Shown: positions 28,344 to 56,147, numbered from the stretch's first letter. The stretch is 64,000 bases of DNA from Burkholderiales bacterium (GCA_035700525.1 DASSON010000073.1:2266-66265); one strand, 5' to 3'. A program made the numbers and translations. Notes: generated by a model from the letters alone, not told the origin.

Positions 28344-28415
28344 TTAACCATGCGCCTCATTCATCGGAAAGCCGGCGCGGGCAATGTGGCTGTACCTATT
28401 GACGCACTCACTCTC

Positions 28416-29597: not shown

Positions 29598-29610
29598 CCG
29601 GAATTCCCCC

Positions 29611-32760: not shown

Positions 32761-32845
32761 TGGCTCTGCCGGCCGATTGATTTGCGAGACTCTGCGTCTA
32801 TTGGCATCCGCTTGAAAGGCTGAGGCCATCCCTGAATGACATGGG

Positions 32846-33170
32846 TTGCCTTGGGCTTCTCGAATGCGGTTGTTGAGAATCCTTCAGCAGCGAGAAGTTA
32901 CGCGACGCGGGACAACAGTCGTCAGAAAAACCGGGCTGCGTATCGTCGCTGCCACCAACCGCGTGTTACCTCTCGGAGTCCGAAACGGTCGATTTCGTGA
33001 AGATCTTTTTCATCGACCCGCGGCAGGCGTCCCGGTATTGTATTACCGCCTTTGCGACAACGGGAGCGGGCGATTGATGCGATGGGGTGCGACGGCGTGA
33101 ACCAGGAAAGGGGCGCCACTTCGTGGCACCCCGCCTCGCTTGACGCTACTTCGGATCATCCACCCGCCAA
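32846..33170 (+). pseudogene. internal fragment of a sigma54-dependent (NtrC-family) activator AAA+ domain, frameshifted
   Basis: ORF 32846..33100 reads RLLRILQQREVTRRG...LRIVAATNRVL...GRFREDLFHR, which is the conserved sensor region. The next conserved block, VLPPLRQRERAIDAM, appears in another frame. No Walker A/B and no C-terminal HTH are present. Confidence 0.6.
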
Positions 33171-36100: not shown

Positions 36101-36230
36101 CAGCGTTCTCGGTCTTCGGATACTGGGTCACCGGCAGCAGGTTCAATGACCGCAGGCCGAGCACCAGGATCAGCAGACTGATGACGGTCGCCAGTACCGG
36201 CCGCTTGACGAAGATGTCGGTAAATTTCAC
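33171..36230 (-). CDS. RND multidrug efflux permease (MdtB/MdtC-like)
   Basis: MKFTDIFVKRPVLATVISLLILVLG N-terminus; 1019 aa, 12-TM RND architecture. Confidence 0.95.
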   Translation of the reverse strand: MKFTDIFVKRPVLATVISLLILVLGLRSLNLLPVTQYPKTENAVITVTTIYTGASPDLVAGFITTPLENAIAQANGIDYLQSSSTQGLSTITANLRLNYDANKAMTEISAQVNSVLNQLPPDALKPTIKLSIGQTTDAMYMAFYSDTLPSNKVTDYLLRVVQPKLSTVDGVQQAEILGGRQFAMRVWLEPDKMAAYGVSAAQVRQVLAANDFISAVGRTEGQMVTVDLIASTGVHSVDEFKKLIVKSQNGAIVRLGDVAHITLGAEDYNTSVVFDGLHAVFIGIKVAPAANLLTVIDRVRHVFPQIQSQLPQGLQAKIVYDSTDYINSSIHEVLQTLIEALVIVTIVIFLFLGSIRSTLIPIIAMPLSLIGAFLFMLVLGYSINLLTLLALVLAIGLVVDDAIIVVENVHRHMELGSSPFEAALAGARELGSPIIAMTIVLIAVYLPIGFMGGLTGALFTEFAFTLVAAVVVSAIMALTLSPMMCSKFLKQDSGKQRLVHFLDQLFERVRLRYVHVLKGVLDYRLVTAVFALIVLVSIYFLYATSKKELAPDEDQGVVLINGTAAPNATLQQTELYSNQIINIYKNLPEHAHLFMINGYQGLNTVIAGIVLKPWDQRSRTQMQVQPIIQKELNDITGLKAAAFPFPPLPGARGFPVQFVLGTTEPFLRLYDVSQELVKRAEASGMFFFVDNDLKYDKPQTTIVIDRNKAADLGLTMSDIGQDLGAMLGGGYVNFFSISGRSYKVIPQVQQRHRLNAAQLENYYIRTGSGAMVPLSTVASLKTTVVPETLNHFQQLNAATISAVTRPGITTGQALTWLGQQAKEVMPPGYTIDYAGQSRQYVQESSALLVTFFFSIIIIFLVLAALFESFRDPLIVLISVPMSICGAMIFISLGLSSLNIYTEVGLVTLIGLISKHGILIVQFANDLQRAGKAKREAIEEAAGIRLRPILMTTAAMVLGVLPLITASGAGAVGRFDMGLVIATGIGIGTLFTLFVVPTMYLFLAEEIEPEGEAETGPVTT

Positions 36231-36237
36231 GATGAAC

Positions 36238-37371
36238 CTATGATTTGTCGGCAGGCATCGGCGCCGGATTGTTCGTCGGCTGCACCCTGTTGTTGATCGT
36301 CACCGGGCTGCCGTTGCGGAGTTTGATCTGGCCGCTGGTGACGACCTGTTCACCGGCCTTGACGCCTTTTTCGATGGCGACCTGGTCGCCGCGCGTCTCG
36401 CCGGTCGTCACGAAGCGCTGTTGTGCGATCAGTTGCGGATGGCCTTTGCCATCCTTGCCCTTGTCCTCGATCACGTAGACCGTGTCCCCATACGGATTGT
36501 AGGTGACCGCGGTCTGCGGCAGCGTGACGACATTCTGTTGCTGCGGCAGCTCCACCGCGACGGTGCCGAACATTCCCGGCGCGAGCTTGTGCTCGGCATT
36601 GGCGAGTTTGGCCTCGACCGCGAAATTACGAGTGGCAGGATCGATCTTCGGATTGATCGCGGTGATCGTGCCGCCGAATTTGACGTTCGGATAGGCATTG
36701 GTGGTCAGCGTGATCGGCTGGCCGACACGGGTCTTGCTCAGATCCTGCTGCGGCAGCGAGAAATCGGCGTAGAGCGGATCCAGTGCCTGCAGCGTGACGA
36801 TGTTGGCGCCCGCGGCAACGTATTGCCCGACATCGACCTGGCGAATGCCGAGCCGGCCCGAAAACGGCGCGCGTATGGTCTTCTTCGCCACCAGCGCCGC
36901 CTGCTGATCCGCCTGCGCCCGCGCGTTGTCGAGCTGGCTGCGATCGGTGTCAACCTGCGCCTGCGATGCGATGCGGCGCGCCAGCAGGCCGCGGTCGCGA
37001 TCATAATTGATCTGCGCCAGCTTGACCTGTGCCTGCAGGCCGCGCAGCTTCGCCCTGTCGGCATCCGCTTCGAGCTGCACCAGCACCGTTCCCGCCTTGA
37101 CCGCGTCGCCGGACTTGAAGTCGATCTGCTTGACGATGCCGGCCACTTCGGTCGTGACATCGACCCCTTGCACCGCGCGCAAACTCGCCACCGAGTGCAG
37201 TTCCGGGCTCCATGTCGCCACCGTTGCCTTTTGGGCGGTCACCGCTTGCGACGGGATCGGCATGCTCGCCATGTACTTGGCGATCATGTGCGACTTGAAC
37301 AGATCCCATCCGAAAATGCCGCCGAACACGATCGCCACCGCGATCAACATGATGATCATGCGTTTTGCCAT
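36238..37371 (-). CDS. RND efflux periplasmic adaptor (MFP)
   Basis: N-terminal anchor MAKRMIIMLIAVAIVFGG, then HlyD-type lipoyl and barrel motifs. Start trimmed to the ATG at 37371. Confidence 0.9.
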   Translation of the reverse strand: MAKRMIIMLIAVAIVFGGIFGWDLFKSHMIAKYMASMPIPSQAVTAQKATVATWSPELHSVASLRAVQGVDVTTEVAGIVKQIDFKSGDAVKAGTVLVQLEADADRAKLRGLQAQVKLAQINYDRDRGLLARRIASQAQVDTDRSQLDNARAQADQQAALVAKKTIRAPFSGRLGIRQVDVGQYVAAGANIVTLQALDPLYADFSLPQQDLSKTRVGQPITLTTNAYPNVKFGGTITAINPKIDPATRNFAVEAKLANAEHKLAPGMFGTVAVELPQQQNVVTLPQTAVTYNPYGDTVYVIEDKGKDGKGHPQLIAQQRFVTTGETRGDQVAIEKGVKAGEQVVTSGQIKLRNGSPVTINNRVQPTNNPAPMPADKS

Positions 37372-37399
37372 AACCGACTCTTTTTGTGTATGTCCCGAT

Positions 37400-38998
37400 T
37401 TATTGATGCACGGATGAATTTGAAGCCGCGGTGGCGGAAACGGGTGTCGCAGCCGCCGTACCGCCGGCAGCGCTCCACCAGCCGCCGCCCAGCGCCTGGA
37501 ACAGCGCGGCGGTGTCCTGGTAACGCGTGCCGAGTGCCTCGACATAGCCGATCCGCGCCTGCTGGTACTGGCGTTCCGCCAGCAGGATCGCGAGATAGCT
37601 CGAGGCGCCGGCCTTGTACTGCTCGCGGGAAAGCGCGAGACTTTCACCGGAGGCCTTCATTGCCTGCGATTGCGCCGACAGTGCCTGCGCGTCATGCTCG
37701 AGCGCGCGCAGCACGTCGGCAACCTGCTGAAACGCGGTCAGTACCGTCTGCTTGTAATTCGCCGCCGTCTGTTCATAAGCGGCGACCGCCGCGCGTTTCT
37801 TCGCGCGCAGCGTGCCGCCCTGAAAGATCGGCGCCATCAGATTGGCGCCCAGATTCCAGATCGCTCCGCCGGGACCAAACAGATCGTTCACCTTGTTGGC
37901 GGCCTGTCCGTACGATCCGGAAATGCTGATGTTCGGATAAAGCGCCGCGGTCGCCACGCCGACCTGCGCACTGGCCGCGTGCAATGCACTTTCCGACGCG
38001 CGAATGTCGGGCCGTTGCCGCACCAGTTCGGAAGGCAGTGTCAGCGGCAGCTTCTGCGGCAGCGTCAATGCGCCAATGTCGAAATCGGCCATCTTCAATT
38101 CGGCCGGAAACTGGCCGGTCAGCGTCGCCAGTGCGTGCCGGGTCTGCGACACGCGCTGCTCCAGCGGCGGCAATGTCGCACGGGTCAGCGCCAGTTGTGA
38201 TTGCGCACTCAGCACGTCGGCATAGGCGGCGGCACCGAGTGCGACCTGCTGCTTGACCAGCTTCACCTGTTCCGCCTCGGCGGAAATGATTTCACGCGTT
38301 GCCGCAATCTGTGCCCGCAGCGCCGCCTCGTTGATCGCCGCGGTGACCACATTCGATGCCAGCGTCAGATAGGTTGCCTGCAATTCATAGCGCTGGAAAT
38401 CGACCTGTGCCTGCAGCCCTTCCAGCGTGCGCCGCGTGCCGCCGAAAACGTCGAAGTCGTAAGCGACGTTGACCGACGCGGTATAAAGATTGAAGACACC
38501 GCCCAGCCCGCCGGCGCCGCCGCCGAATGTGGCGCCGTTGACCTTTTCGCGCGCGGCCGACGCTCCAACATTCAGCGACGGATAGAGCGCGCCGGAACCG
38601 GCCTTGAAGTTTTCCTCCGATTCGCGCAACGCCGCCTGCGCCGCAGTGACCGTCGGACTGTCCTTGAACGCGCGCTCGATCAGCCCGTTGAGCTCGGACG
38701 AATGGAACAGCGCCCACCACTGCTGCGGGATTTTCTGCACCTGCGTGAACGTCTGGGCCTTGCCACCGTGGCCCGGCGTGGCGCGCGTGGTGTCGGCAAT
38801 CGGCTGGTGCGTATATTGCGTGACATCCGGCGCCGCCGGCTGCCTGAAATCCGGACCAACGGCGCAGCCACCGAATACCGCCGTGGCCACGGACAGCACG
38901 ATGCCGGCTGCGGCGCGGCGCCTGGAAAAGGGAGTGTCTTGCGTCAAACCGAAGGTTTTCTGTTTGCGGTTCACCGAAGCTCCGATCTGAAAGTTCAT
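37400..38998 (-). CDS. NodT-family outer-membrane efflux lipoprotein
   Basis: Lipobox VFGG-C and duplicated TolC-type repeats. The ATG at 38998 overlaps the TetR stop as ATGA. Confidence 0.9.
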   Translation of the reverse strand: MNFQIGASVNRKQKTFGLTQDTPFSRRRAAAGIVLSVATAVFGGCAVGPDFRQPAAPDVTQYTHQPIADTTRATPGHGGKAQTFTQVQKIPQQWWALFHSSELNGLIERAFKDSPTVTAAQAALRESEENFKAGSGALYPSLNVGASAAREKVNGATFGGGAGGLGGVFNLYTASVNVAYDFDVFGGTRRTLEGLQAQVDFQRYELQATYLTLASNVVTAAINEAALRAQIAATREIISAEAEQVKLVKQQVALGAAAYADVLSAQSQLALTRATLPPLEQRVSQTRHALATLTGQFPAELKMADFDIGALTLPQKLPLTLPSELVRQRPDIRASESALHAASAQVGVATAALYPNISISGSYGQAANKVNDLFGPGGAIWNLGANLMAPIFQGGTLRAKKRAAVAAYEQTAANYKQTVLTAFQQVADVLRALEHDAQALSAQSQAMKASGESLALSREQYKAGASSYLAILLAERQYQQARIGYVEALGTRYQDTAALFQALGGGWWSAAGGTAAATPVSATAASNSSVHQ

Positions 38999-39699
38999 CC
39001 GCGCACCACGGAACGACGTGCGGACGCACTGTTTTTCGTGCCTGCCGCGGCTTTTTTGCAGGCGGCGATCCCGTTGACCAGCACGTCGCAGCACTGGCTG
39101 GCATAGCGCTCCGGATTGTCGGTGAAGCGGACTTCCGGCAGATAACGGATCACGTCACGCCACAGAAAGAATGTGACGTTCGCCGACAGCAGCATGCCGG
39201 CGACGATCGCCGGATCGAGATTTTTCCGCACGTCGCCGCAGCGCTGGCTTTCGCGCACGTGTTCGACCAGCTGCGAAAAATTGCGGCCGAATACGCGCTC
39301 GGCCAACTGATGGCCACGGCGCTGCCCGTTGTCCAGCACTTCACGCATCACCAGCCGCGTGCGGCGCTCGTCCTCGAACAGGGTTTCCATGTGCCCACGC
39401 GAAAAGCGGGTCAGCCGCGCCCCGAGCCGGCCGCGCCCCGCAAAACCGGCCTCGACCAGCGGGCCGAAGTTCGAGCACGCGCCGCGCAGCACTTCGATAT
39501 AGAGCGCTTCCTTGGAACTGAAGTGATGGAAGATATTGGCCTTGCTGACCCCGGCGCGCGCGGCGATCGCGTTCATCGACACCGCATCATAGCCACGCGT
39601 CGAAAACAGCTGGCGCGCGGCGAAAAGTATCTTCTGTTCACGCGAACCCTGCCGCGGGCTCTTGCTTTTGGTTTTTTCGGTCACGTTCCGGGGACGCAA
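38995..39699 (-). CDS. TetR-family transcriptional repressor
   Basis: HTH AARQLFSTRGYDAVSMNAIAARAGVSKANIFHHFSSKEALY. Start uncertain (TTG at 39699 or GTG at 39684). Confidence 0.9.
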   Translation of the reverse strand: MRPRNVTEKTKSKSPRQGSREQKILFAARQLFSTRGYDAVSMNAIAARAGVSKANIFHHFSSKEALYIEVLRGACSNFGPLVEAGFAGRGRLGARLTRFSRGHMETLFEDERRTRLVMREVLDNGQRRGHQLAERVFGRNFSQLVEHVRESQRCGDVRKNLDPAIVAGMLLSANVTFFLWRDVIRYLPEVRFTDNPERYASQCCDVLVNGIAACKKAAAGTKNSASARRSVVRG

Positions 39700-44879: not shown

Positions 44880-46094
44880 TCACTGCGGCATGGCCTTATC
44901 CAGCGACGCGAGGAACTGATCCGCCGACTGGAACCCGATCACGCGCGGCTTCACCTCCTTGCCATTCCGGTCGAAGAAAATAATGCCCGGCGGACCAAAC
45001 AGCCGGAAGCGCGCGAGCAGTGCCTTGTCGTCGGCGTTGTTGGCGGTAACGTCGGCCTGCAGCAACATTGCATTCGCGAGCCTCGCCTGCACGCGCGGAT
45101 CGCTGAACGTAAAGCGCTCCATCTCCTTGCATGAAACGCACCAGTCCGCGTAGAAGTCGAGCATCGCATAGCGACCATGCGCGGCGGCAAGCTGTGCATC
45201 GAGATCGGATACGCTTTTAATCCGCTGGAACGGCAGCCGCACCGGTTCAGCCGCAGCGCCACCTCCGCGCAGAATCGCGAGCGGCTGCAGCGGATCGCGG
45301 CTGCCCGCAAGCACGCCAACCAGCAGCGCGACTCCGGCGGCCAGCACGATCACGCCGACGCCCTTGCCCAGGCGACGCACGCCGGACGCCACGACCGGCA
45401 ACGGGTCGAGCGCACGCAGATACATCGATCCGACAATCAGCACTGCCGCCAGCACCAGCATCACCCACAGTCCGCCGAACCGGGACGGCGTCGCCACATC
45501 ATTGATTGTTCCGGACACCGCGGACGCCAGCGGTTGCGCGTCCGCCGACGGCGCGGCCGTTGCAACAGCCGCCGGCAAATCGAGATCGAATGTTTTTTCG
45601 AGCGGGACGTAGCACACGCCCTTCGGCTCGTTGCACCCCTGCCACGTCGCGTGCAGCGCGAGCTGCGCGGCGGCGGCAGATGCGCGCTTCAGCGCAATGC
45701 GCACCGTGAATGGCTGGCGATAGATTTCCATGGGACCGAAAGCCGGATCATTTTTCATCACCCCCTTCGGCAGATCGACGCCGGCGATCGTGACGCCGCC
45801 CGGCTTCAGCACCTTGAAGTGGATGCGGTCATGGTACAGGTAGTAATCCTTCGCCGGCGTGAAGCGGGCGATCAGCGTATTCGCATCCTTTACCGTGATC
45901 GCGAGCTTGAACGCCTGCTCCGGCGGCAGCAATTCGTCCGTGCTGTTGTTGCCGCCCAGCCATTGCTCGAGACCGGCGACCCGGATGATGCCCGGCGCAG
46001 CCGTCTCACCTGCGTGCGGCACATGATCCGCCGCGCTTGCCGCCGCGGCAAAGCACAGCGTCGCCAGCAGCACCACTGAAATCCGAATTTTCAT
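44880..46094 (-). CDS. DsbD-like thiol:disulfide interchange protein lacking most of the membrane core
   Basis: Signal peptide, DsbD-alpha domain (WQGCNEPKGVCYVP), only two hydrophobic helices, then a DsbD-gamma thioredoxin domain (MLDFYADWCVSCKEMERFTFSDPRV). Start trimmed to the ATG at 46094. Confidence 0.75.
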   Translation of the reverse strand: MKIRISVVLLATLCFAAAASAADHVPHAGETAAPGIIRVAGLEQWLGGNNSTDELLPPEQAFKLAITVKDANTLIARFTPAKDYYLYHDRIHFKVLKPGGVTIAGVDLPKGVMKNDPAFGPMEIYRQPFTVRIALKRASAAAAQLALHATWQGCNEPKGVCYVPLEKTFDLDLPAAVATAAPSADAQPLASAVSGTINDVATPSRFGGLWVMLVLAAVLIVGSMYLRALDPLPVVASGVRRLGKGVGVIVLAAGVALLVGVLAGSRDPLQPLAILRGGGAAAEPVRLPFQRIKSVSDLDAQLAAAHGRYAMLDFYADWCVSCKEMERFTFSDPRVQARLANAMLLQADVTANNADDKALLARFRLFGPPGIIFFDRNGKEVKPRVIGFQSADQFLASLDKAMPQ

Positions 46095-46152
46095 TCCGTT
46101 CATGCTTGCTCGATGATGCGCCGCCAATGCGGCACGAAACCAATGCTCATTA

Positions 46153-48486
46153 CTATAACTCCACCCGGCGCAGCCGCAGCGCGTTGCCGATCACCGACAC
46201 CGAGCTGAAACTCATCGCGGCGCCGGCAATGATCGGCGACAGCAGCAGTCCGAACGCCGGAAACAGCACGCCGGCCGCCAAGGGGATGCCCAGCGCATTG
46301 TAAACGAACGCGAAGAACAGGTTCTGACGGATGTTGCGCATCGTTTTATGTGATAGTCGCCGTGCTTTCGCGATGCTGCGTAAATCGCCCTTCACCAGCA
46401 CCACGCGCGCACTCTCCATCGCCACGTCGGTGCCGCTGCCCATCGCGATGCCGACCTGCGCCTGCGCCAGTGCTGGCGCGTCATTGATGCCGTCACCGGC
46501 CATCGCAACGATCCTGCCTTCAGCCTGCAGGCGCTTCACGATTTCATACTTGTCCTGCGGCAGCACCTCGGCGTGAATTTCATCAATGCCGAGCTCGTGC
46601 CCGATTGCTTCCGCGGTCGCACGGTTGTCGCCCGTCAGCATCACGATGCGCAACCCCGCTTGCTTGAGGATATGCACCGCTTCCGGTGTTGACGCCTTGA
46701 TCGGATCAGCGACGCTCACCAGCCCCGCAGCTTTACCGTCCACCGCTACCAGCATCGCCGTCTCGCCTTGGCGGCGCAGAGCATCCGCCGTCTGCGCCAG
46801 GTCGTCGGTCGCGATCCCGTTATCCTGCATCATCCGGCGATTTCCCACCAGCACGATGCGATCCGCAACCGTGCCGCGCACACCCTTGCCGGTGATCGAT
46901 TCGAAATCGGCAGCCGCATCGGGTCTGATATCGCGTTCCGCGGCGCCGGCAACGATCGCTGCGGCCAATGGATGCTCGCTCGCATTCTCGATGCTGGCGA
47001 CAAGCCGCAGCAACTCGTGCTCGTCAAATCCGTCAACGGTTCGGACCGTACGCAGCCGCGGCCTGCCCTCAGTCAGCGTGCCGGTCTTGTCCACCACCAG
47101 CGTATCGACCCGCTCCATTACTTCCAGCGCCTCGGCGTCCTTGATCAGCACACCCTCGCGCGCGCCGCGCCCGACCCCGACCATTACCGCAATCGGCGTC
47201 GCCAGGCCCAGCGCGCACGGGCAGGCAATGATCAGCACTGACACCGCCGCGACCAGTCCGTGCACCAGCACCGGCTCGGGTCCGATCGATACCCATACGA
47301 TCAGTGTCACGATCGCAGCCAGCACCACGCCCGGCACGAACCACGACGACACGGTATCGGCGAGCCGCTGAATCGGCGCCCGCGAGCGGCTGGCGTGCAC
47401 CACCAGATCGGTGATGCGCGCGAGCAGCGTATCGGCGCCGACTTTCTCGGCTTTCATGATGAATGCGCCGGTCTGATTGACGGTGCCCGCGGTCACCGCA
47501 TCGCCGTCCGATTTCGTGACCGGCAGCGGCTCCCCGGTCACCATCGATTCGTCGATCACCGAAGCGCCTTCCAGCACCGAACCATCGACCGGCACTTTCT
47601 CTCCGGGCCGGACACGCAGCCGGTCTCCGGCATGCACATTGTCGAGTGCGACATCTTCCTCGTTGCCATTTTCAGCAATGCGCCGCGCGGTGGTCGGCGC
47701 CAGCCCGAGCAGCGCCTTGATCGCGCCCGACGTGCGCGAGCGCGCGCGCAATTCCAGCATCTGGCCCAACAGCACCAGCGTGATGATCGCCGCCGCGGCC
47801 TCGAAGTAGATCGGCAGCATGCCGTGCGTCTTGAACGATTGCGGCAACATACCTGGAAACAGCAGCACGAACAGGCTGAACAGATAGGCTGCGGCGACAC
47901 CGAGCCCGATCAGACTCCACATATTGAGCGCGAGTGTGCGGTACGAGCGCCACGCGCGCACGAAGAACGGCGCGCCGCCCCATAGCACGACCGGGGTCGC
48001 AAGCACGAATTGCAGCCAGTCGAACGGCGCCGCTCCGAGCCAGTCGCGAAAGCGCACACCCGGAATCATGTCGCCCATCGCCAGCACCAGCACCAGCAGC
48101 GGAATGGTCAGCGCCACGCCAATCCGGAAACGCCGCGTCATCGACGTCAGTTCCGGATCCTCCTGCTGTTCGAGAGACGGCGTGCGCGGCTCCAATGCCA
48201 TGCCGCAGATCGGACAGGACCCGGGCCCGGACCGCACGATCTGCGGATGCATCGGACAGGTGTACTCGATTGCCGGTGCGGTCGGCAGCATCGGCTCCAG
48301 CGCCATCCCGCACTTCGGACAGTCGCCCGGTTTGTCCTGCACGATCTCCGGATGCATCGGACAGGTATAGGCGGCTTTACCAGCCGGGACGGACGATTTC
48401 GAATTGCCGGCTGCCGGCAGGTCATGGCAACGCGCGCACGCTTTTTGCGCGGTGGCGGAATGTTTCATTCGGCGTTTTGGTTCCAC
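46153..48486 (-). CDS. copA: copper(/silver)-translocating P1B-type ATPase
   Basis: CPC motif [13 protein letters not shown], phosphorylation site [15 protein letters not shown]. Two N-terminal CPMHP(E/Q)IV...CP(K/I)CGMALEP metal-binding modules replace a GMTCxxC HMA domain. Start is GTG at 48486 or ATG at 48468. Confidence 0.93.
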
Positions 48487-48515: not shown

Positions 48516-48565
48516 ATCGTATACCCCATGCCAGTATACGTCAAATACCTATATAGGGTATATAG
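48516..48565. promoter_or_regulatory. candidate ATPase promoter with two dyads
   Basis: On the minus strand, TTGACG (48544-48539), a 17-nt spacer, then TACGAT (48521-48516). Dyad cgtatac-N9-gtatacg (48518-48540) fills the spacer. A perfect ctatata-ggg-tatatag dyad (48549-48565) lies just upstream. Confidence 0.35.
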
Positions 48566-48618: not shown

Positions 48619-49578
48619 TCATTTACCTGCGAGCCGCATGGCAAGTGCTGCCGCATAGCCAAGAGCGAACCCCGCGGCCGGCCCTACCAGCCAGCCTTTC
48701 AAGATGCCCATGACGACCGGCCACTGCACCGTATCACGCCCGCGCGCGAGGCCGGCGCCGGCCATGGCACCGATGAGCGCCTGGTTCATCGATGTGAAAT
48801 AGCCGAAACCTACCGCCGCCAGCACCACCAGCGCCTGCACGCCCTGCGCCGCGGTAGCCATCGTGAGATCCATCTTTACCACGTCGAAAGCGACTCGTTC
48901 CAGTAAAGGCTTGCCCCACGTGATGACGCCGAGCGCCAGACCTAATCCACCGACCAGCCCGGCAACGAAAACGCCAAACAGGTTCGTGGTCAGAAAAACA
49001 GCCGTGGCGTTGGAGACATCGTTGGCGCCCATCGTAAGTGAAGCCAGTGCTCCGACCGCGACCAGCGCGCCGGTAACGAACGCGACATGCCCGCCGCGCG
49101 CCTGAAACCATGGCAAATGGTCCAGAAGCCGGGTAAATGCGAACCCCAACGCCAGTGCGGCCAGCGGCGCTATCGCCCACAGCACGGCCAGCCGCGCAAT
49201 GGTGTCCCAGCGAACTGGCAGGCCCAGCGCCAGCCCTACGCCCGCGATCGAAAACACCAGAATTTGAATGGTGGACGTCGGAATGCGCAATGCGTTGAAG
49301 ATCGTGGTGAGCACAAACGCCGCGCCGACAACGGCAAGCGCCGCACCGAGACTGATGCGCTGCGCGCGAATGATGCCGTGCCCCACGGTGGCGAGCACGC
49401 CATGACTCAGAAAAGTGGCCCCAAGCAAGGTCAGAATCGCCATCAGCACAAGCGCCGGCCACAGGCGGATTGTCTTTGCCGCATAAGGCATGCCCATGCA
49501 GGCACCGGTGTAGTGCGCACCCATGCTCCAGGCGAATCCGAACGCCACTACAACCAAGGCCCATGCGACGCTCGACAT
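48619..49578 (-). CDS. PiT/PHO4-family permease (short form)
   Basis: Second-half signature GANDVSNA is present. The first-half signature is degenerate (SMGAHYTGA). 319 aa, polytopic. Confidence 0.8.
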   Translation of the reverse strand: MSSVAWALVVVAFGFAWSMGAHYTGACMGMPYAAKTIRLWPALVLMAILTLLGATFLSHGVLATVGHGIIRAQRISLGAALAVVGAAFVLTTIFNALRIPTSTIQILVFSIAGVGLALGLPVRWDTIARLAVLWAIAPLAALALGFAFTRLLDHLPWFQARGGHVAFVTGALVAVGALASLTMGANDVSNATAVFLTTNLFGVFVAGLVGGLGLALGVITWGKPLLERVAFDVVKMDLTMATAAQGVQALVVLAAVGFGYFTSMNQALIGAMAGAGLARGRDTVQWPVVMGILKGWLVGPAAGFALGYAAALAMRLAGK

Positions 49579-50046
49579 CTACCGGCCCTGCTTCGCTTTC
49601 CGAATCGCCTGATCGAGGACAGCATGATGCTCATCATGCCGCACGACGAATTCCTTCAGCGACGGCACCACCGATTTTTCGCACCATTCATGAAGCCGGG
49701 CGCGTTCTTCGCGCGGACCCGGACTGTAATGCTTCCTGATAGCAAGCAACGCTCCCTTACGCGCAGCGTTCGCAGATCGAACCGCAATCCGCCGCGCTTC
49801 GGATTCAGGCAGGCCCGGAATAACTTCGCTTCGGATATGTAGCATCAATCCTCGCATGTCGCCGACGGTGCTTCTTGTTCTGTCGATGATCGAAGGATCA
49901 TACTGCGCACAGTAAAATGCAAAATTATCTGCAACGTCCGCCCTCTCCAAAATTCGCACGAGCCTTTCATCATCGGCGGCAAAAGCGGGCGCCCAGACGA
50001 GAACGATGAGCGTTGCGCTCAATCCGGTTTTTGCCCGGCATTTCAT
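49579..50046 (-). CDS. hypothetical secreted alpha-helical protein
   Basis: Signal peptide MKCRAKTGLSATLIVLVWAPAFA. GGAG lies 6 nt upstream of the ATG at 50046. The stop abuts the PiT ATG. Confidence 0.55.
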   Translation of the reverse strand: MKCRAKTGLSATLIVLVWAPAFAADDERLVRILERADVADNFAFYCAQYDPSIIDRTRSTVGDMRGLMLHIRSEVIPGLPESEARRIAVRSANAARKGALLAIRKHYSPGPREERARLHEWCEKSVVPSLKEFVVRHDEHHAVLDQAIRKAKQGR

Positions 50047-50077
50047 TATCATCTCCGCATAATGAAGGTAGATCCGG

Positions 50078-51835
50078 CTACTGTCCGCCGACGTTGACGA
50101 TTCCGACCATGCCCGCACCGAAGTGACCCGGTTCGTGGCAACCATATCCGATTTTCATCGGCTTGTCCGGAAATCGCCAGGTGATGGATTTCGTTGCGCC
50201 CGGCGCGATGCTGATGCCGTTCGCATCATCGTGCATCGCCATGCCGGGCATTTTCTTCATCATTGCCTGCATCTCGGCTTCGTGTTCTTTCTGCTCCGTG
50301 GCGTCGCCGATCACGAATTCATGCCTGATCCTGCCGGTATTGGTCACTTCGAACCGGACGACTTCCCCGGGTTTGACCGTGATCGCAGCCGGACTGAAAC
50401 GCATGGCATCCTGTGCTTTTATCCTCACCACCCGATCATGCGCGCCTGGAACTGCAGGACTTCCAAAACTGAACTGCGATCCATGTTGATGCCCGATGCC
50501 GCCCATGTCGTGTCCGGAATCATGAGCAGCCTTCGCCCCCGCCGCGCCAAGCGCCGACAGATATGCCACGGTCCCCTTCGGATGCTTGTACCATCCGGGA
50601 TCACGATAATCGCCAGGCGCAAGATTTTCGCGAACCTTCACCATCGTAAACATTCCGCCCATCTCGATCGAGCCAAACGGCCCCTTGCCGGTCATCATCG
50701 GCAGCGTGTTCTCGGGAAGTGGCATGCCCATCTGCGCCATTTCCGCCATGTCAGCCATGCCGTTCTGTCCCATCAGCATGTAGTCGGGCAGCAATGACTG
50801 GATTTTCTTTTCCGTGTCCTTCATGTCCACCCCGATCATATTCGGGATGCCGTGGCCCATCGAATTCATCGTATGGTGAGAGCGATGGCAATGAAACGCC
50901 CAATCCCCTGGATTGTCGGCGATGAACTCGATGACCTGCACACTCCCCACCGGCACGTTCCAGGTTGTCGCCGGCCATTGCGCGGACTCGGGGAACCAGC
51001 CACCGTCGTTGCCGGTGATCCTGAACGAGTGCCCGTGCAGATGCATCGGGTGGCTGTCCATGCTCAGGTTGCCGATACGGATGCGTACCCGCTCGCCCAG
51101 CCGCACCGGCAGCGGCGCGGTGCCGGGAAACACCCGACTATTCAAGGTAAAGATGTTGAAGTCGGTCATCACGCTGGGATCGGGGCGCGCGGTGCCGGGA
51201 TGGATCGCCCACTCATGCAGCATGATGCAGTAGTCGCGGTCGATCTTCGGCCCCAGCGGCTCCCTGGGATGCGCGATGAAAAAGCCCATCATACCCATCG
51301 CCATCTGCACCATTTCATCCGAATGCGGGTGATACATGAAGCTTCCGTGCTGCTTCATGGTGAACTCGTAGACGAAAGTCTTGCCCGGCGGGATGTGCGG
51401 CTGGGTCAGTCCGCCCACGCCGTCCATGCCGTTGGGAACGAAGATGCCATGCCAGTGCACTGTGGTGTGTTCCGGCAGCTTATTCGTCACCAGGATACGT
51501 ACCCGGTCGCCCTCCACCACCTCGATCGTCGGCCCCGGCGTCTGGCCGTTGTAGCCCCAGCAATTGACCATCATGCCCGGCGCGAATTCGCGCTTCACCG
51601 GCTCGGCAATCAGGTGAAACTGTTTTACGCCATTCACCATTTTCCATGACAGCGTACGGCCATTTGGTGTCACCACCGAAAGGTACTCACCGTTTCCGGC
51701 CGCAGGTGGCCGCGTCGCGGCAGCTTTCGCATACGGTGCCGCCTCTTTCGCGGACACATGCTGCGCCCTCAATAAACCGGTCGAACCCGCCAGCGCAGCC
51801 AGGCTCGACAACAACATTTCGCGTCTGGTCACCAT
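50078..51835 (-). CDS. Tat-exported multicopper oxidase fused to a C-terminal cupredoxin (CopI-like) domain
   Basis: Twin-arginine signal MVTRREMLLSSLAALAG. MCO motifs HWHG, HPMHLHGH, HCHRSHH. The C-terminal ~120 aa carry type-1 Cu ligands (RHEF...GCHEPGHFGAGM) and a Met/His loop EHEAEMQAMMKKMPGMAMHDD. Confidence 0.9.
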   Translation of the reverse strand: MVTRREMLLSSLAALAGSTGLLRAQHVSAKEAAPYAKAAATRPPAAGNGEYLSVVTPNGRTLSWKMVNGVKQFHLIAEPVKREFAPGMMVNCWGYNGQTPGPTIEVVEGDRVRILVTNKLPEHTTVHWHGIFVPNGMDGVGGLTQPHIPPGKTFVYEFTMKQHGSFMYHPHSDEMVQMAMGMMGFFIAHPREPLGPKIDRDYCIMLHEWAIHPGTARPDPSVMTDFNIFTLNSRVFPGTAPLPVRLGERVRIRIGNLSMDSHPMHLHGHSFRITGNDGGWFPESAQWPATTWNVPVGSVQVIEFIADNPGDWAFHCHRSHHTMNSMGHGIPNMIGVDMKDTEKKIQSLLPDYMLMGQNGMADMAEMAQMGMPLPENTLPMMTGKGPFGSIEMGGMFTMVKVRENLAPGDYRDPGWYKHPKGTVAYLSALGAAGAKAAHDSGHDMGGIGHQHGSQFSFGSPAVPGAHDRVVRIKAQDAMRFSPAAITVKPGEVVRFEVTNTGRIRHEFVIGDATEQKEHEAEMQAMMKKMPGMAMHDDANGISIAPGATKSITWRFPDKPMKIGYGCHEPGHFGAGMVGIVNVGGQ

Positions 51836-51836
51836 G

Positions 51837-53321
51837 TCAGTGCCCTCCATGCCGATGTTCGGATGCTCCTGCCGACCGCGGCTGCGGCTGGGGCCGTGGC
51901 GAAGCTTCGGGTTGTGTCGCCGCCGGCGGCACTTCTGCCTTTACCGGAAGCGGGCCGCCGATTGCCTGCTCCAGCGACGCATGTGCCAGCCAATAATCGC
52001 GCAGTGCACCGATGTAGCCGCGTCCCGCGTCGATTTCGGCCTGCTTAGTGCGCAGCAGCTCGTAGACTCCGACCAGCATGCCGTTGTAATAGCGGTAGGA
52101 AAGTTTCACCAGTTTCTGGTTGAGCGGCAGGATCGCGTGACGGTAGTGCCGCACGGTCTGCTCGTCGATCAGAAGTTTTGCTCGCGCTTCACGTACCTGG
52201 GAGCGGATGTCTACAGCCAATGCGTCGCGCTCCTTCTCCTGTTGGCGCAGCAGCGCTTCCAGCCGCGCGATGCGCGCCTGTCCCTGGTCGAAGATCGGTA
52301 ACCCGATCGACAAGTCAGGACCGGTGACTGTCGCGCCTTCGGCATCGCGCTCACGGCTCACACCCACCGCCACGTCGCCCACGTAACGGTAGTCGCGCGT
52401 GTAGCCGAGTGCGTAACGCAATGTCTCGACCGACTTGCCCATCGCAGCGAGATCAAGGCGATTATCGATGGCATAGTCTTCAAGACTCCCCGGATCGGGC
52501 AACGCCGCCGGCACGTCCGGTAGCCGCATGGGCAGTGAGTACTGTATGTCCTTGCCCCACAACCCCATGATGCGAGTAAGCGCTTCGCGATCGCGCTCCA
52601 ATTGCTCCCGGGCCCGCACCACATCGAGGGCGGCCTGCGCGTAGAACGCCTGCTCGCGCGTCTGGTCCAGCCGGCTGATGTTGCCCGCCTGGAACTGCCG
52701 CACCGCGATTTCCGCCGTCGCCTCCGCGGCCTTGGCCGCGGTCCGATTCATCTCCACCAATTGCGCATCGGACACGGCGGTGTAGTAGGCGGATTTCACC
52801 TCGGCGGCAAGCTTGAGCACGGCATGGGCAGTCTGCAGTTTAGTCTGATCGAAGTTGCCCTGCTCGACCTTCATGCGCGGCGTGCGCGTGAGAACGCCGA
52901 AAAAATCCTGTACCACGCCGAACTCACGCCCGGTGCCACCGCCACCCGTGCGCACCTGGGCACTGAACACCGGATTCGCGAGCAGACCCGACTGCACCAG
53001 ATCGGCCTGCGAGACGCCCAGCTCTTCATACTTCGCCTGCAGCACGGCGTTTCGCAGCAGCGCGATCTGCACTGCGCTGTCTACGCTCAGCGGCTGCGCG
53101 AGCAGCCTCCCGACCGCCGCCTGCGCCGCCTGATCGTCAGCCGTGTTGCGGTTCCACTGCACTTTCTGCGGCAGGCGTGAAGCCACCGCTTGCCGCACGT
53201 CCGAAAAACCGGCATCTTTCGGCACTACGGTGGTGCAGCCGCCGAGCGCTGTCGCGGCCAGAATGATTGTGCTGGCAGCTCTGATCGAAGACCGGACACG
53301 CGGCTTTCGGTTGTTGGCCAT
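51837..53321 (-). CDS. TolC/NodT-family outer-membrane lipoprotein (no RND or MFP partner in the operon)
   Basis: Lipobox ALGG-C, two TolC repeats, Pro-rich His-ended tail. The stop is 1 nt from the oxidase ATG. Start trimmed to the ATG at 53321 (RBS GGGGAAA). Confidence 0.85.
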   Translation of the reverse strand: MANNRKPRVRSSIRAASTIILAATALGGCTTVVPKDAGFSDVRQAVASRLPQKVQWNRNTADDQAAQAAVGRLLAQPLSVDSAVQIALLRNAVLQAKYEELGVSQADLVQSGLLANPVFSAQVRTGGGGTGREFGVVQDFFGVLTRTPRMKVEQGNFDQTKLQTAHAVLKLAAEVKSAYYTAVSDAQLVEMNRTAAKAAEATAEIAVRQFQAGNISRLDQTREQAFYAQAALDVVRAREQLERDREALTRIMGLWGKDIQYSLPMRLPDVPAALPDPGSLEDYAIDNRLDLAAMGKSVETLRYALGYTRDYRYVGDVAVGVSRERDAEGATVTGPDLSIGLPIFDQGQARIARLEALLRQQEKERDALAVDIRSQVREARAKLLIDEQTVRHYRHAILPLNQKLVKLSYRYYNGMLVGVYELLRTKQAEIDAGRGYIGALRDYWLAHASLEQAIGGPLPVKAEVPPAATQPEASPRPQPQPRSAGASEHRHGGH

Positions 53322-53333
53322 GATTTTCCCCAC

Positions 53334-53708
53334 TTAATGCTGCATGTGCTGCATCTGACCGTGGCCCACGTCCGGCATATTCTCCATCCCCGGCATGTTT
53401 TTCATGTCGCCCCGTTTCGATTTGTTCGAGCTGGCCGGCTTACCTTCCATGCTCTTCATATCGCCCATGCCTGGCATGTTGTGCATGCCTTGCATTCGAT
53501 GATCTCCGGAAGTCGCATTGCTTCGGGAATTGGCCATCGCGCCGGAATCGGCAACGAAATTCCGATAATCGGAAAACACATCCGAATAGGAAGCGGCCGG
53601 TGCAACCGGCGCGTTGGGATCGGCCGGGCTTTCCGCCGCCGATAAAGCGGCCTGCGTGGCCATCGCGCACGCCAGCGTCGCGCCAACGGCAATGTGCTTG
53701 CATTTCAT
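53334..53708 (-). CDS. secreted Met/His-rich protein
   Basis: Signal peptide. The last ~55 residues contain 12 Met in M-x-x-M/H spacing (HRMQGMHNMPGMGDMKSMEG...GDMKNMPGMENMPDVGHGQMQHMQH). Confidence 0.65.
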   Translation of the reverse strand: MKCKHIAVGATLACAMATQAALSAAESPADPNAPVAPAASYSDVFSDYRNFVADSGAMANSRSNATSGDHRMQGMHNMPGMGDMKSMEGKPASSNKSKRGDMKNMPGMENMPDVGHGQMQHMQH

Positions 53709-53841
53709 TGTTCAATCCTCGTCTCAAGAACCGGCGCGCGCATTGCGGTTACCGGTTGATATCCGGAATTCGGCCTGCACCGGGAAACGCATTCAGCCGG
53801 CCGAAACCCGGCTCTCCGGAACCGCAAGGGTCCCGGCAAAA

Positions 53842-54207
53842 TCAGGCGAGGAAAGCTACCGGAGGCCGGTAGAAAGAAGCAGAAATGAAAGAAACGAAGG
53901 AAACTTCGAAGTCCGGCAGCATGACAGGATGGTAATCCGTGTCTCGCGCCACTGTCGGTGTATTCGGCACATAGGCCGCAGTGCAGACCGCGCAAAGGTT
54001 GCACAGTGCACACTCCTGGCTTTGCGTCCCGGTATGATGCGCGCCGTGTTTCGTGTGCGAAACCGAAGCATGCGTCACACCATCCGTGGGCACCATCGAT
54101 GATGCTTCGTGCGGACACGCCACGCCGGCGGCCATCGCTGCGCCTTGTAGCGGCAGCAAGAATGCAACAGCCAGCAGGATGGCCAAACGTAGGCCGTAGC
54201 TACGCAT
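53842..54207 (-). CDS. secreted Cys/His-rich protein, CzcI/CopL-like (paralog 2)
   Basis: Signal peptide, His cluster HTKHGAHH, CALCNLCAVC, C-terminal ...FYRPPVAFLA. Same layout as 55577..55939. Confidence 0.55.
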   Translation of the reverse strand: MRSYGLRLAILLAVAFLLPLQGAAMAAGVACPHEASSMVPTDGVTHASVSHTKHGAHHTGTQSQECALCNLCAVCTAAYVPNTPTVARDTDYHPVMLPDFEVSFVSFISASFYRPPVAFLA

Positions 54208-54410
54208 GGAGCGGCATGTTACGTCCACGTATCCGGACCGTCAAGACAAGGAACGTCTTGATGCAGCAGCGTATCAACGGATGCGCCGACTGCGGTCAAT
54301 GGGGCTCCCATGCCGACCACCCGTAAATAATGCGAGCGCGTCCAGTACACCATCATCCGTCTGCCCGATATAAAGCAGCCTGGCCGCAACAATGTTCACT
54401 CATTGGTCCT

Positions 54411-54896
54411 TTATGCCTTGGGCGCCCACTTGGCGTCCACCGCAGATTGTATCCTGGCAGCGTCGGTTACACCCTTTTGAACCAGGGTGTAGGCGATCTC
54501 GGCCGTGCCGCGACAGACCTCACAATTCACCGCCATTTCGTCTTCAAAGCATTGCAGGTTGGAACGATGGGCACCACGATTCTCGCAGCCACACCAGCAA
54601 TAAAGCTGATTGAGCGTTGCCGGAATCTGCGTCGCCACCCAGTAGGCATGCCGGACTTCGGGTCGGCTGAACCGGTTCGGATTCAATACACGGGAGGCAT
54701 CCGAGCGGCCGCCCGGAATGATGCGCAACCCGTCGGAACGCAGCATGCCAACCTTCCATTCCGAAGCCTGCACACTTTGCGCGTTTGCGCGCACGGTTAT
54801 TCCAAGTCCTACCGCGCCCGCGGCCAGCACTGTACTCGCGAGCGCAGAACGCAGAAGTCTGCGACGCTTCGGATCGGGCAATTGAAAACGTTTCAT
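54411..54896 (-). CDS. PCYCGC-motif family protein with a Tat-type signal
   Basis: MKRFQLPDPKRRRLLRSALA signal. YCWCGCENRG...CFEDEMAVNCEVC cysteine pattern. Start trimmed to the ATG at 54896. Confidence 0.7.
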   Translation of the reverse strand: MKRFQLPDPKRRRLLRSALASTVLAAGAVGLGITVRANAQSVQASEWKVGMLRSDGLRIIPGGRSDASRVLNPNRFSRPEVRHAYWVATQIPATLNQLYCWCGCENRGAHRSNLQCFEDEMAVNCEVCRGTAEIAYTLVQKGVTDAARIQSAVDAKWAPKA

Positions 54897-54986
54897 ATAC
54901 GTCCCCATTATTGATATCACGCTAAAAATAACCGCACGCCACGGCGAAAATACCGATCGCCGCGGCATGCGGCCACACTGCGGACT

Positions 54987-55373
54987 TTATTTCGACTGCT
55001 GCGGCTTTATCTTGTCGGCGTATTTGACGAGGATTTTACCCATCGCCTCCATCATCTCGCCGTGCATCCGCATCGCGAGCGCTTCGTCCCCGGTAGGGAA
55101 GCGGCCCATCATTGGACACCCGCCGCCCATCATCCCCATCATTCCACCCATCATGCCGCGGCCCATCATCCCGTTACCCATCATGCCGTTACCCATCATG
55201 CCGTTACCCATATTGCCCATCATTTGGGCGTTCATTCCCGGCATGGCTTTCGTGCCTTGCTCACTCTGCGGATGATGATGCGTGGATGCCTCACCTTCCG
55301 CCGCAAGGCTCCATCCGCTTGTTCCGACAAGAACCGCAGCAAGCAATACCGGGTACAGTTTTTTCGCGTTCAT
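54987..55373 (-). CDS. secreted Met/Gly-rich protein with GNGMM repeats
   Basis: Strong RBS AAGGAG and a signal peptide. 25 Met in 128 aa by my count, in MPGMNAQMMGNMGNGMMGNGMMGNGMMGRGMMGGMMGMMGGGCPMMG. Confidence 0.7.
   Translation of the reverse strand: MNAKKLYPVLLAAVLVGTSGWSLAAEGEASTHHHPQSEQGTKAMPGMNAQMMGNMGNGMMGNGMMGNGMMGRGMMGGMMGMMGGGCPMMGRFPTGDEALAMRMHGEMMEAMGKILVKYADKIKPQQSK
55162..55210. repeat. 15-bp tandem repeat inside the Met/Gly-rich gene
   Basis: cccatcatcccgtta / cccatcatgccgtta / cccatcatgccgtta, then a degenerate fourth unit. It encodes the GNGMM units. Confidence 0.8.
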
Positions 55374-55576
55374 ATCAATCTCCTTGAATCAGATTACCAG
55401 GCTCGATCCAGCGACCTCTGGACAACGCCACAGGAAGATGACGCCGCCTGTCATACCTCGAACAATAGGACAGCACACGCCCTTGTTTGCGCCAGATGTT
55501 CGGTGAAATTTGGTAAAGTAGCGCCCGCAGCGGGCTGCGCACGATCAGACCGCCAAATGGCGTCCATGAAAGAGGA

Positions 55577-55939
55577 TTACGCGACGAGCGGAGGCCGTTG
55601 CAACTGTTCCGGAATGAACAGCGACATGCGATGATCAACCAACGAGTGGTATACGGCAGAAAACTCCAACAGGGGCGGCAACGATGCCGGGGCCGGGATC
55701 GCTGCTCCGGTACAGGAAAGGCTGCATGCTCCGCCGTGGCAAGCAGGCGACATCGGCGCCGTCCGGCCACTGCAATCGGAGTGATCGCCGACCTGGTCAC
55801 ATGGGACGGCTCGTACCCCGTCGGCCATTGCCGCCGTCCGGGACGACTGCGCATGACATGGCATCGCCGTCGCGGCAAAACCGGCAACCGGCGGCCATGC
55901 GATCAGGACCAGCATCACCAGATGAATGACGAACTTCAC
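55577..55939 (-). CDS. secreted Cys/His-rich protein, CzcI/CopL-like (paralog 1)
   Basis: GTG start, signal peptide MKFVIHLVMLVLIAWPPVAGFA, seven Cys (PCHA, PCDQ, DCSG, ACHGGACSLSC), C-terminal ...EQLQRPPLVA. TATAAT (55954-55949) lies only ~10 nt upstream of the start. Confidence 0.55.
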   Translation of the reverse strand: MKFVIHLVMLVLIAWPPVAGFAATAMPCHAQSSRTAAMADGVRAVPCDQVGDHSDCSGRTAPMSPACHGGACSLSCTGAAIPAPASLPPLLEFSAVYHSLVDHRMSLFIPEQLQRPPLVA

Positions 55940-56147
55940 GGCGCAATCATTATAGCAACTTCGGCTGCTGCCAAATCAATCCACCGCAACTGCGCGGCGG
56001 ATGCGATTCGACATCCACTGCGCATTACGATCGCCCGCTGCGCCGCGCCGAGGGACGCGGCGCAGCGACAATCGGGACTCGGCATGCCGGACACCAGGCC
56101 ACCCGCCACCAGCATGGCTGGCGAGTGCGATCAGCGGGGGCTGTGAC

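Follow-up and report, generated by a model that had tools for sequence, protein, structure and literature searches.

Tandem candidate leader sensors of the CutF/CruR type and a TolC-oxidase module in a putative copper-defence island of an uncultured Burkholderiales bacterium

Small exported proteins encoded at the head of copper operons have been described as sensors that act on the genes behind them. CutF, which heads cutFOG in Rhodobacter capsulatus, combines a Sec signal with a CxxxC motif and, at its C-terminus, an arrest-like motif rich in Pro, and acts only in cis: copper on the nascent exported chain slows translation, and a stem-loop shielding the cutO ribosome-binding site then melts (PMC9973294; bioRxiv 10.1101/2025.02.05.636593). 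CutF-like open reading frames (ORFs) are defined as shorter than 150 amino acids (aa), with a signal peptide, a Cys motif, Pro-Pro within the last 15 residues, and a gene downstream in the same orientation; their commonest neighbours are outer membrane efflux protein (OEP) genes, and CzcI does not carry the C-terminal Pro motif (PMC9973294). In Bordetella pertussis, CruR, a DUF2946 ORF upstream of BfrG, carries a CXXC and, at a set distance from it, a RAPP motif and acts by way of Rho-dependent termination, switching off a copper-uptake TonB-dependent transporter when copper relieves stalling (PMC9426467). In such leaders, the distance that separates the Cys motif from the arrest motif is conserved (PMC9426467). 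On the side of the effectors, the “MCO operon” of Sinorhizobium meliloti CCNWSX0020 encodes an Omp protein, a CueO-like multicopper oxidase (MCO), an azurin-like blue copper protein, and a copper chaperone, and is reported to be copper-induced and linked to copper tolerance (review PMC6266702). Here we analyse a string of copper-type genes in a 64,000-nucleotide (nt) stretch of DNA from a Burkholderiales bacterium (GCA_035700525.1 DASSON010000073.1:2266-66265), hereafter the window, and compare it with these systems.

ORF listing of the window gives nine consecutive co-directional ORFs on the minus strand at 48619-55939, numbered here g1 to g9 in the order of transcription; unless stated otherwise, all features below lie on that strand. 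The nine genes stood in the preliminary description and were called independently, in the same order, by the Joint Genome Institute (JGI) on an identical soil-metagenome contig, where a P-type ATPase and a DsbD-like gene come next. In the window, too, the copper string extends past g9, with genes for a CopA-type P1B ATPase (g10, 46153-48468) and a DsbD-like protein (g11, 44880-46103). Start codons are more likely at 54896 for g3, 54207 for g4, 53321 for g6, and 50046 for g8, in agreement with the JGI calls. Family scans largely uphold the products first assigned to the string, with the correction that the MCO is a two-domain enzyme; export signals were assigned by eye. We read the locus, at a probability of about 60%, as a copper-defence island of an uncultured Burkholderiales bacterium, that is, a mosaic of recurrent modules in three transcription units in which CutF/CruR-type leader sensors (g1 and g4) would be combined with effectors.

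This reading begins with g1 (55577-55939, 120 aa) and g4 (53842-54207, 121 aa), which a profile built from relatives places in one family, famA (E values of 4e-17 and 2e-24, respectively). For comparison, 80 species-level loci with relatives of the oxidase g7 were used, 52 of these with full flanks, and famA genes, like those of the famB family introduced below, were located in them by reading upstream ORFs and with iterated profiles. famA proteins are ~120-165 aa long, with a signal peptide, a His/Cys-rich middle, and a C-terminus containing RPP, and they are encoded upstream in ~57 loci. The hydrophobic N-termini of g1 (VKFVIHLVMLVLIAWPPVAGFAA) and g4 (MRSYGLRLAILLAVAFLLPLQGAAMA), judged by eye, align with those of the relatives. 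Both proteins carry a Cys motif of the metal-binding CXXC or CXXXC kind, CHGGACSLSC in g1 and CALCNLCAVC in g4, and both end in Pro-Pro within the last 15 residues (QRPPLVA-stop and YRPPVAFLA-stop). The downstream gene lies on the same strand at less than 1000 nt, across a gap of 203 nt after g1 and 133 nt after g4. Among 46 famA relatives, the C-terminus is nearly always [E/D/H/Q]RPP followed by 2-6 residues and the stop codon. Measured from where the Cys motif ends to the RPP arginine, the spacer is 38 residues long in g1 and g4 alike and 37-40 in most members that have both motifs, which is the conserved spacing expected of a leader. These features suggest that g1 and g4 are probably CutF/CruR-type leader ORFs rather than copper-handling proteins.

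The second line of evidence is the predicted RNA geometry at the g4-g5 junction (53709-53870). In the minimum free energy fold (-75.9 kcal/mol, z = -2.4), an anti-Shine-Dalgarno (anti-SD) sequence UCCUCG (53852-53847) pairs with the SD sequence CGAGGA (53721-53716) of g5 in a long stem, and every predicted partner of this SD falls at the 3′ end of g4. The Pro-Pro codons of g4 occupy 53865-53860, and the anti-SD sits in the Phe-Leu-Ala codons 8-13 nt past the second Pro codon, so that a ribosome held on Pro-Pro would cover it. The same arrangement was followed through 46 related loci, with famB start codons picked by rule: the famB SD is more paired (0.68) than in shuffled sequences (0.58; Wilcoxon p = 3e-7), and its predicted partner falls within the final 45 nt of famA at a mean fraction of 0.72 (median 0.94), whereas shuffles give 0.29 (p = 9e-9). 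In ~29 of the 46 loci, from different genera and with different tail sequences, the centre of this partner is 6-15 nt past the Pro-Pro codons. In the predicted fold of the window, the Tyr-Arg-Pro-Pro-Val codons of g4 (53857-53873) also make a perfect 7-bp hairpin, CUACCGG-CCU-CCGGUAG, which may simply follow from the codons.

The genes behind g4 belong to an arrangement that recurs far beyond this locus. Relatives of the oxidase number in the thousands at ~65-70% identity and come from Proteobacteria, Planctomycetota, Verrucomicrobiota, Geobacter, and others, and 373 plasmid records carry the oxidase. In 78 of the 80 species loci, which span several phyla, a TolC-like gene lies immediately upstream of it. 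In turn, the gene just before the TolC-like one encodes, in ~57 loci, a secreted protein or lipoprotein of ~75-130 aa with the motif DP.DP.A.VP..Y.S.F.GY...W+..N; this family, famB, has no counterpart in Pfam. The small secreted protein g5 (53334-53708, 124 aa) belongs to famB by a profile seeded from a relative (E = 7e-10), the only profile that made the placement, as one seeded from g5 failed to recruit; its C-terminal half has turned Met/His-rich. On Burkholderia, Sinorhizobium, and Ralstonia replicons, the Prokaryotic Genome Annotation Pipeline gives the order DUF2946, hypothetical, TolC family, copper oxidase, cupredoxin, copper-binding protein. Across the 80 loci, the cupredoxin is fused to the oxidase in 6, encoded by a separate gene in 46, and absent from 28, as established by an explicit ORF check, since tblastn alignments can run through in-frame stop codons. 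CusF is encoded in 38 of the 52 full-flank loci, with none in the window. Judged by sequence, g4-g7 is a variant of this widespread module, which comprises a DUF2946-like ORF, famB, a TolC-like channel, and a two-domain MCO, usually with a cupredoxin and CusF. The locus had been called largely uncharacterised, and that judgement stands for the products g2, g3, g5, and g8.

The TolC-family protein g6 (51837-53321, 494 aa) is divergent, with 102.5 bits to the OEP family, a lipobox (LGGC), and no sequence match in the Protein Data Bank (PDB) at E ≤ 0.001. CusAB genes lie within 10 kb of the module in only 8 of the 52 full-flank loci; the TolC-like protein is thus normally not encoded with a pump of the resistance-nodulation-division (RND) type. 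Literature searches for a described TolC-MCO mechanism gave nothing specific. The protein ends in a Pro-rich, His-containing tail (...SEHRHGGH; 51837-51950) outside the OEP domains, which could be a metal-binding extension.

The oxidase g7 (50078-51850, 590 aa) is a predicted Tat-exported protein. Its Pfam cupredoxin domains at residues 88-197 and 229-333 are ~30 residues apart, and 2zwn and 3g5w, both two-domain enzymes, align to the protein without interruption. All canonical type 1, 2, and 3 copper ligands (H132, H134, H174, H176, H267, H270, H272, H320, C321, H322, H326, and M331) are invariant in 35 homologues. In an AlphaFold2 model, the core (residues 60-330) is best fitted by 3gdc, 2zwn, and 3g5w, at a root-mean-square deviation (rmsd) of 3.3-3.6 Å and 28-32% identity, and three-domain enzymes fit the model only at an rmsd of ~20 Å. 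Because the full-length model has a mean predicted local distance difference test score (pLDDT) of 59.8 and is unreliable in the Met-rich segment and the C-terminal cupredoxin, only the core (pLDDT ~75-95) was used. As a three-domain CopA, g7 reaches only 172 bits against the TIGR01480 cutoff of 479. Sequence and model together indicate that the g7 core is a two-domain multicopper oxidase. Behind it follow a Met-rich segment of ~110 residues and a cupredoxin with the type-1 pattern C-x4-H-x4-M, which scores best against CopI models (83-86 bits), below their cutoffs of 200 and 280.

Upstream of this module, g1 heads a smaller group. The Met/Gly-rich secreted protein g2 (54987-55373, 128 aa) belongs to a family of proteins of ~100-130 aa with ~107 representatives at E ≤ 1e-3 among 1.84 billion sequences; the matches are full-length and conserve both a GGCPMM motif and, at the C-terminus, a helix (..MHGEMMEAMGKIL.KYADKI). 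g2 may be a Cu(I)-buffering Met protein. The protein g3 (54411-54896, 161 aa) has a twin-arginine leader, a YCWCGC motif, and three further Cys residues; it matches the PCYCGC family PF13798 at 30.8 bits (cutoff 25) and narrowly misses the NCBIfam CYCXC equivalog (84.8 bits compared with 90). It has no solved relative by PDB sequence search, and literature searches on PCYCGC gave nothing specific; NCBIfam describes the family as including selenoproteins. Relatives of g3 at 50-78% identity are encoded in 34 metagenome loci. Several of these show, in this order, a DsbD gene, a g1-like ORF (MKF...LIAWLPILGY...PEPxQRPP), variable small ORFs, the PCYCGC gene, a P-II-like gene, and a gene for a Tat-MCO. 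At the variable position, two loci (L110 and L095) encode a g2-like Met/Gly protein and others a small membrane protein. The group g1-g2-g3 recurs in this way, beside DsbD and an MCO, in soil metagenomes. In Geobacter, the PCYCGC gene lies beside genes for P-II, CusA, and CusB. g3 could bind copper or act in redox reactions in the periplasm through its Cys residues. In copper clusters, a gene for a small P-II-like protein stands repeatedly right after or next to PCYCGC genes (L097 3636-3953, L098 4717-5112, L110 4564-4899, and L004 959-1285) and is absent from the window. Pfam and NCBIfam scans found no library family for g1, g2, g5, or g8.

Signals between the genes fit three predicted transcription units: g1-g3, g4-g9, and copA with the dsbD-like gene. 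Promoter-like hexamers matching the consensus lie upstream of g1 (TTGGCA-17-AATGAT, 55946-55974), where a perfect TATAAT ends ~10 nt before the GTG start, and 8 nt upstream of the ATG of g4 (TTGACG-17-TAACAT, 54216-54244). A terminator-like hairpin (GCGGCCAGGCTGC then TTTATATCGG; 54375-54387) follows right after the g3 stop. With the -10 element ending 8-10 nt before both starts and no SD visible before g1, the arrangement hints at leaderless or near-leaderless mRNAs. Within the second unit, the reading frames of g6 and g7 share 14 nt, the stop codon of g8 abuts the ATG of g9, and g5 and g6 either overlap by 14 nt or abut, depending on the start of g6; these junctions fit co-expression and translational coupling. 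The preliminary description had proposed two modules, each headed by a CzcI-like gene. The paralogous Cys-rich heads, the hexamers before g1 and g4, and the hairpin after g3 agree with that division, but the heads are better read as leader ORFs.

The third unit begins with a copA promoter region (48516-48562) in which two CsoR-box-like palindromes overlap promoter-like hexamers. The CsoR box pattern from Bradyrhizobium liaoningense (PMC5057107), searched as TATACCCnnnnnGGGTATA with up to 3 mismatches, has only 2 matches in the 64 kb (0.28 expected); they lie side by side at copA, each with 2 mismatches. The ATPase has two N-terminal HMBD motifs and an E1-E2_ATPase domain, and is assigned to the CopA type by TIGR01511 (597 bits, compared with 397). 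In g11 (407 aa), alpha and gamma domains are present, with only the last two transmembrane helices; a relative at another locus (L101), 644 aa long, has the full transmembrane core with both membrane cysteines, which g11 lacks. g11 may be either a degenerate gene or a tethered redox protein needing another electron donor.

The usual partners of copper systems and the usual regulators are missing around these units, and here the tblastn and ORF scans agree with the earlier claim that the window has no cus, pco/cop, or cue partners. By tblastn, the 64-kb window contains no CusB, CusF, DUF411/CopG, P-II, or CsoR, and the only matches to CusA are two multidrug pumps at 23% identity. No CopB, CopC, CopD, or two-component genes were found among the scanned ORFs, and no two-component or MerR gene flanks the string, whose neighbours are a RibD_C protein, a major facilitator superfamily-like protein, fumarase, and others. 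No regulator gene was found within or next to the string, an absence that the leader-ORF reading would account for. Both RND systems located at 28-39 kb were considered as a hidden Cus and rejected, as they score as multidrug pumps, under the CusA/CzcA cutoff. The two multidrug-type systems of this region (28350-39699) consist of an adaptor and a pump on the plus strand and of an outer-membrane factor, an adaptor, a pump, and a TetR regulator on the minus strand, and are unrelated to the copper string.

If the island works as we propose, a nascent, co-translationally exported leader peptide (g4, and probably g1) would bind periplasmic copper through its Cys motif, and the copper-bound leader would pause the ribosome on the C-terminal RPP. 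At g4, the paused ribosome would cover the anti-SD in the last codons and free the ribosome-binding site of g5, and translational coupling would extend the response to the TolC-like channel and to the oxidase. g7 would then oxidise periplasmic Cu(I) to Cu(II), with the fused cupredoxin and the Met-rich segment serving as a copper relay, and the dedicated g6 channel, with g5 as its small partner, would remove copper across the outer membrane with no linked RND pump. In the periplasm, g2 and g3 would buffer or redox-process copper, and CopA, under an unlinked CsoR, would clear the cytoplasm; g8 would be a copper-cluster accessory, and g9 a lineage-specific passenger or an anion permease. In this scheme, we infer copper sensing, stalling, export by g6, and the biochemical roles of g2, g3, g5, g8, and g9.

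Several points weigh against this proposal. The putative role of the channel is its weakest link, with no partner pump encoded. CruR acts in the opposite direction; with defence genes downstream of the leaders here, the response would need the reverse sign. Strong stalling was hard to demonstrate even for CutF (PMC9973294). Formal membership in the Pfam DUF2946 family fails: g4 matches PF11162 at 19.7 bits (cutoff 23.7) and CzcI NF045614 at 19.3 bits (cutoff 100), both with E values of ~1e-3, and g1 matches neither model in the library scans. famA relatives fall on either side of the PF11162 cutoff (26.3, 21.2, and 17.7 bits), and no library match named CopL was found for g1 or g4 at E ≤ 0.1. 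On the RNA side, the g4-g5 SD of the window taken alone is not paired above shuffles (0.71 compared with 0.65), so that the support is comparative, and the 46 loci behind it are phylogenetically related, so that their p-values overstate independence. The 203-nt g1-g2 intergenic region (55374-55576) contains no significant or SD-shielding structure (z = +0.75) and no anti-SD near the Pro-Pro codons of g1 (55594-55589), which makes another mechanism likelier there, possibly Rho-dependent attenuation. A stretch with C>G extends from the 3′ half of g1 into the intergenic spacer (55752-55467), but the same skew is present at the 3′ end of g4 and does not tell the mechanisms apart. Promoters and terminators were called as consensus matches, which are not enriched over shuffles. 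Finally, because g11 is without the DsbD membrane core, a redox link from it to g3 may be broken.

In solved structures, two-domain MCOs, homotrimers whose trinuclear site lies between subunits, and TolC-family channels alike are trimeric, and a direct oxidase-channel complex is therefore conceivable. This leads to a bolder and, in our estimate, doubtful extension of the proposal: TolC-like channel, two-domain oxidase, and famB protein might form an RND-independent outer-membrane machine for copper disposal, in which the three-fold oxidase, equipped here with its own cupredoxin, would dock on or feed the three-fold channel and which would be switched on by a nascent-peptide sensor in place of a transcription factor, with two sensors in tandem here on two modules.

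The two genes at the end of the second unit differ in how closely they follow copper genes. The secreted protein g8 (49579-50046, 155 aa) has homologues in only 27 clusters among 5.8 billion sequences, and in every context read it is encoded at the 3′ end of a copper cluster, after TolC-MCO-cupredoxin-CusF (with or without DUF411 and cytochrome b) or after CopA-CopB. Its model is all-helical (pLDDT 86.7) with invariant C46, C122, H70, H137, and H141, and a fold search against the PDB gave no match at E < 1. One source assigns the identical g8 protein to a Burkholderiales metagenome-assembled genome. Islands with g8 homologues are followed by a Nuo/Mrp-like set of membrane subunits only (Oxidored_q4, NADHdh, q3, q2, and three Proton_antipo) in four loci (L090 10607-17902, L091 9375-16547, L092 11839-12611, and L093 3309-8661), two of which have a LuxR-type gene and a relaxase, suggesting a mobile element.

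The permease g9 (48619-49578, 319 aa) is a short member of the PiT/PHO4 family (PF01384, 128 bits; cutoff 33.7) that fails the CysP sulfate-permease equivalog (108 bits compared with 400); its family of short PiT permeases comprises more than 2000 clusters. None of the four contexts of g9 relatives examined is copper-linked; they include a RepC plasmid, an ars operon in Salinisphaera, and housekeeping regions. The link to copper in the window consists of the abutment to g8 alone, and the inclusion of g9 in the copper system, as first described, is not sustained. A role of g9 as a conserved Cu-phosphate exporter of this system was dropped, given the lack of copper linkage in these four contexts. 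In Salinisphaera sp. LB1 (L128 4923-8954), a 76%-identical PiT-like permease directly follows arsR-arsC-arsH-arsB, a hint that the short PiT subfamily accompanies metal(loid) resistance generally.

The scattered distribution of these genes raises the alternative that the locus is an accidental mosaic formed by island accretion, with g1 and g4 decaying or functionless, regulation in trans by an unlinked CopRS, CueR, or CsoR, and g8 and g9 as passengers. Its modules are indeed found separately elsewhere, copA is apparently under an unlinked CsoR, g11 looks degenerate, and PiT relatives are without copper linkage. We consider this account unlikely, as the famA motifs, their spacing, and their position are kept across many genera, which is unexpected for functionless ORFs; the anti-SD geometry is likewise conserved, g8 recurs at copper clusters, and the overlapping and abutting genes point to co-expression.

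Quite unlikely is the account closest to the preliminary description, one integrated and largely novel nine-gene periplasmic copper system in which all nine products cooperate and the CzcI-like ones are stable metal-binding or regulatory proteins. The genes are co-directional and tightly spaced, their order is identical on several metagenome contigs, g4 weakly matches the CzcI and DUF2946 models, and CzcI has been discussed as a metal-sensing regulator (PMC9973294). The neighbourhood search, however, found the nine-gene order only on contigs that are 100% identical copies of this sequence, with no near-identical DNA in plasmids. A tblastn search of the 80 species loci with all nine products recovered just g6 and g7, together with the ATPase; only the famA-famB-TolC-MCO part recurs there, and g1-g3, g8, and g9 are each distributed separately. 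Moreover, the Pro motif that CzcI lacks is present as RPP at the fixed 38-residue spacing in g1 and g4, and terminator-like and promoter-like sites lie between g3 and g4. The claim of a single nine-gene system does not survive this comparison.

Very unlikely, finally, is a use of the oxidase module mainly for another substrate (Fe(II), Mn(II), or phenolics) or for cuproenzyme maturation or supply, with the TolC-like protein serving a different export: a close homologue (P0017) is labelled manganese oxidase by JGI and the PDB two-domain MCOs are described as laccases, but the neighbours in related loci are CusF (in the 38 of 52 loci given above), cupredoxin, CopCD, DUF411, CopA ATPase, CsoR, and heavy-metal two-component systems, the oxidase carries a Met-rich segment, and the S. 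meliloti operon of like layout is reported as copper-induced and tied to copper tolerance (PMC6266702).

Should the leader reading of g1 and g4 be true, this locus and ~50 related loci would extend nascent-peptide metal sensing of the CutF/CruR type to a very widespread, plasmid-borne copper-resistance module, and would explain copper clusters that carry no regulator. In annotation, such “DUF2946/hypothetical” genes should then not be counted as copper-binding effectors. The placement of a TolC-family channel almost always next to a two-domain copper oxidase, usually without a nearby RND pump, poses a mechanistic puzzle. famB, the Met/Gly family of g2, and the helical family of g8 are three unnamed families that are consistent companions of copper clusters.

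Among the described systems, cutFOG resembles this locus in that a small Sec-exported ORF with Cys and Pro motifs heads an operon with a Tat-exported MCO (CutO in R. capsulatus) and without a regulator protein. It differs in what follows: here the leader is succeeded by famB and the TolC-like gene, the oxidase comes third, the two-domain MCO is fused to a cupredoxin, and there is no counterpart of the chaperone CutG. Here, moreover, two candidate leaders stand in tandem in one locus, and the predicted anti-SD lies within the last codons of the leader. Like CruR, g1 and g4 have a CXXC motif and a spacer of conserved length before the C-terminal R(A)PP arrest motif, RPP here and RAPP in CruR; CruR and g1 both have a long intergenic region (162 nt for CruR and 203 nt after g1) with a C>G stretch. 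In copLAB of Xanthomonas, the cis-acting small ORF CopL, of the same CutF-like superfamily, likewise lies upstream of a copper oxidase and is needed for copper-regulated expression (PMC9973294), but CopA there is a three-domain MCO paired with CopB rather than with a TolC-family protein. CusCFBA, and Czc with CzcI, share with this locus an outer-membrane-factor lipoprotein headed by a small Cys/His-rich ORF, and Met-rich periplasmic proteins; CusA, CusB, and CusF are absent from the window, and CzcI is without the Pro motif carried by g1 and g4 (PMC9973294).

The oxidase shares its core fold and copper ligands with the two-domain MCOs mgLAC (2zwn) and those of Nitrosomonas europaea (3g5w) and Arthrobacter (3gdc), to which it adds the Met-rich extension of ~110 residues and the fused cupredoxin. 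For these solved enzymes, we know of no description of a constant pairing with a TolC-like gene. The C-terminal domain of g7 comes closest to CopI of Rubrivivax gelatinosus, far under the model cutoffs. A multi-metal-sensitive Tn5 tolC mutant of B. liaoningense (PMC5057107) is not shown to be affected in an MCO-adjacent gene and was left unused as evidence.

The nearest match for the effectors is the MCO operon, in which an outer-membrane efflux-family gene lies immediately upstream of the oxidase (taken as an oxidase of ~425 aa) and a cupredoxin gene comes after, the same layout being found on Sinorhizobium pSinB and in Ralstonia and Burkholderia. Layout and relatives in the genus, rather than the sequence of strain CCNWSX0020 itself, suggest that g4-g7 is homologous to its operon. 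The difference is that here the cupredoxin is fused to the oxidase and the CusF-like chaperone is absent, with g8 and the PiT-like permease in its stead. Taken together, the locus appears to be a lineage-specific assembly in which one module matches a genetically known one and regulation most probably follows a mechanism described in 2022-2025. What is distinctive here is the pair of tandem candidate leader sensors, the fusion of oxidase and cupredoxin, and the replacement of CusF by g8 and the PiT permease.

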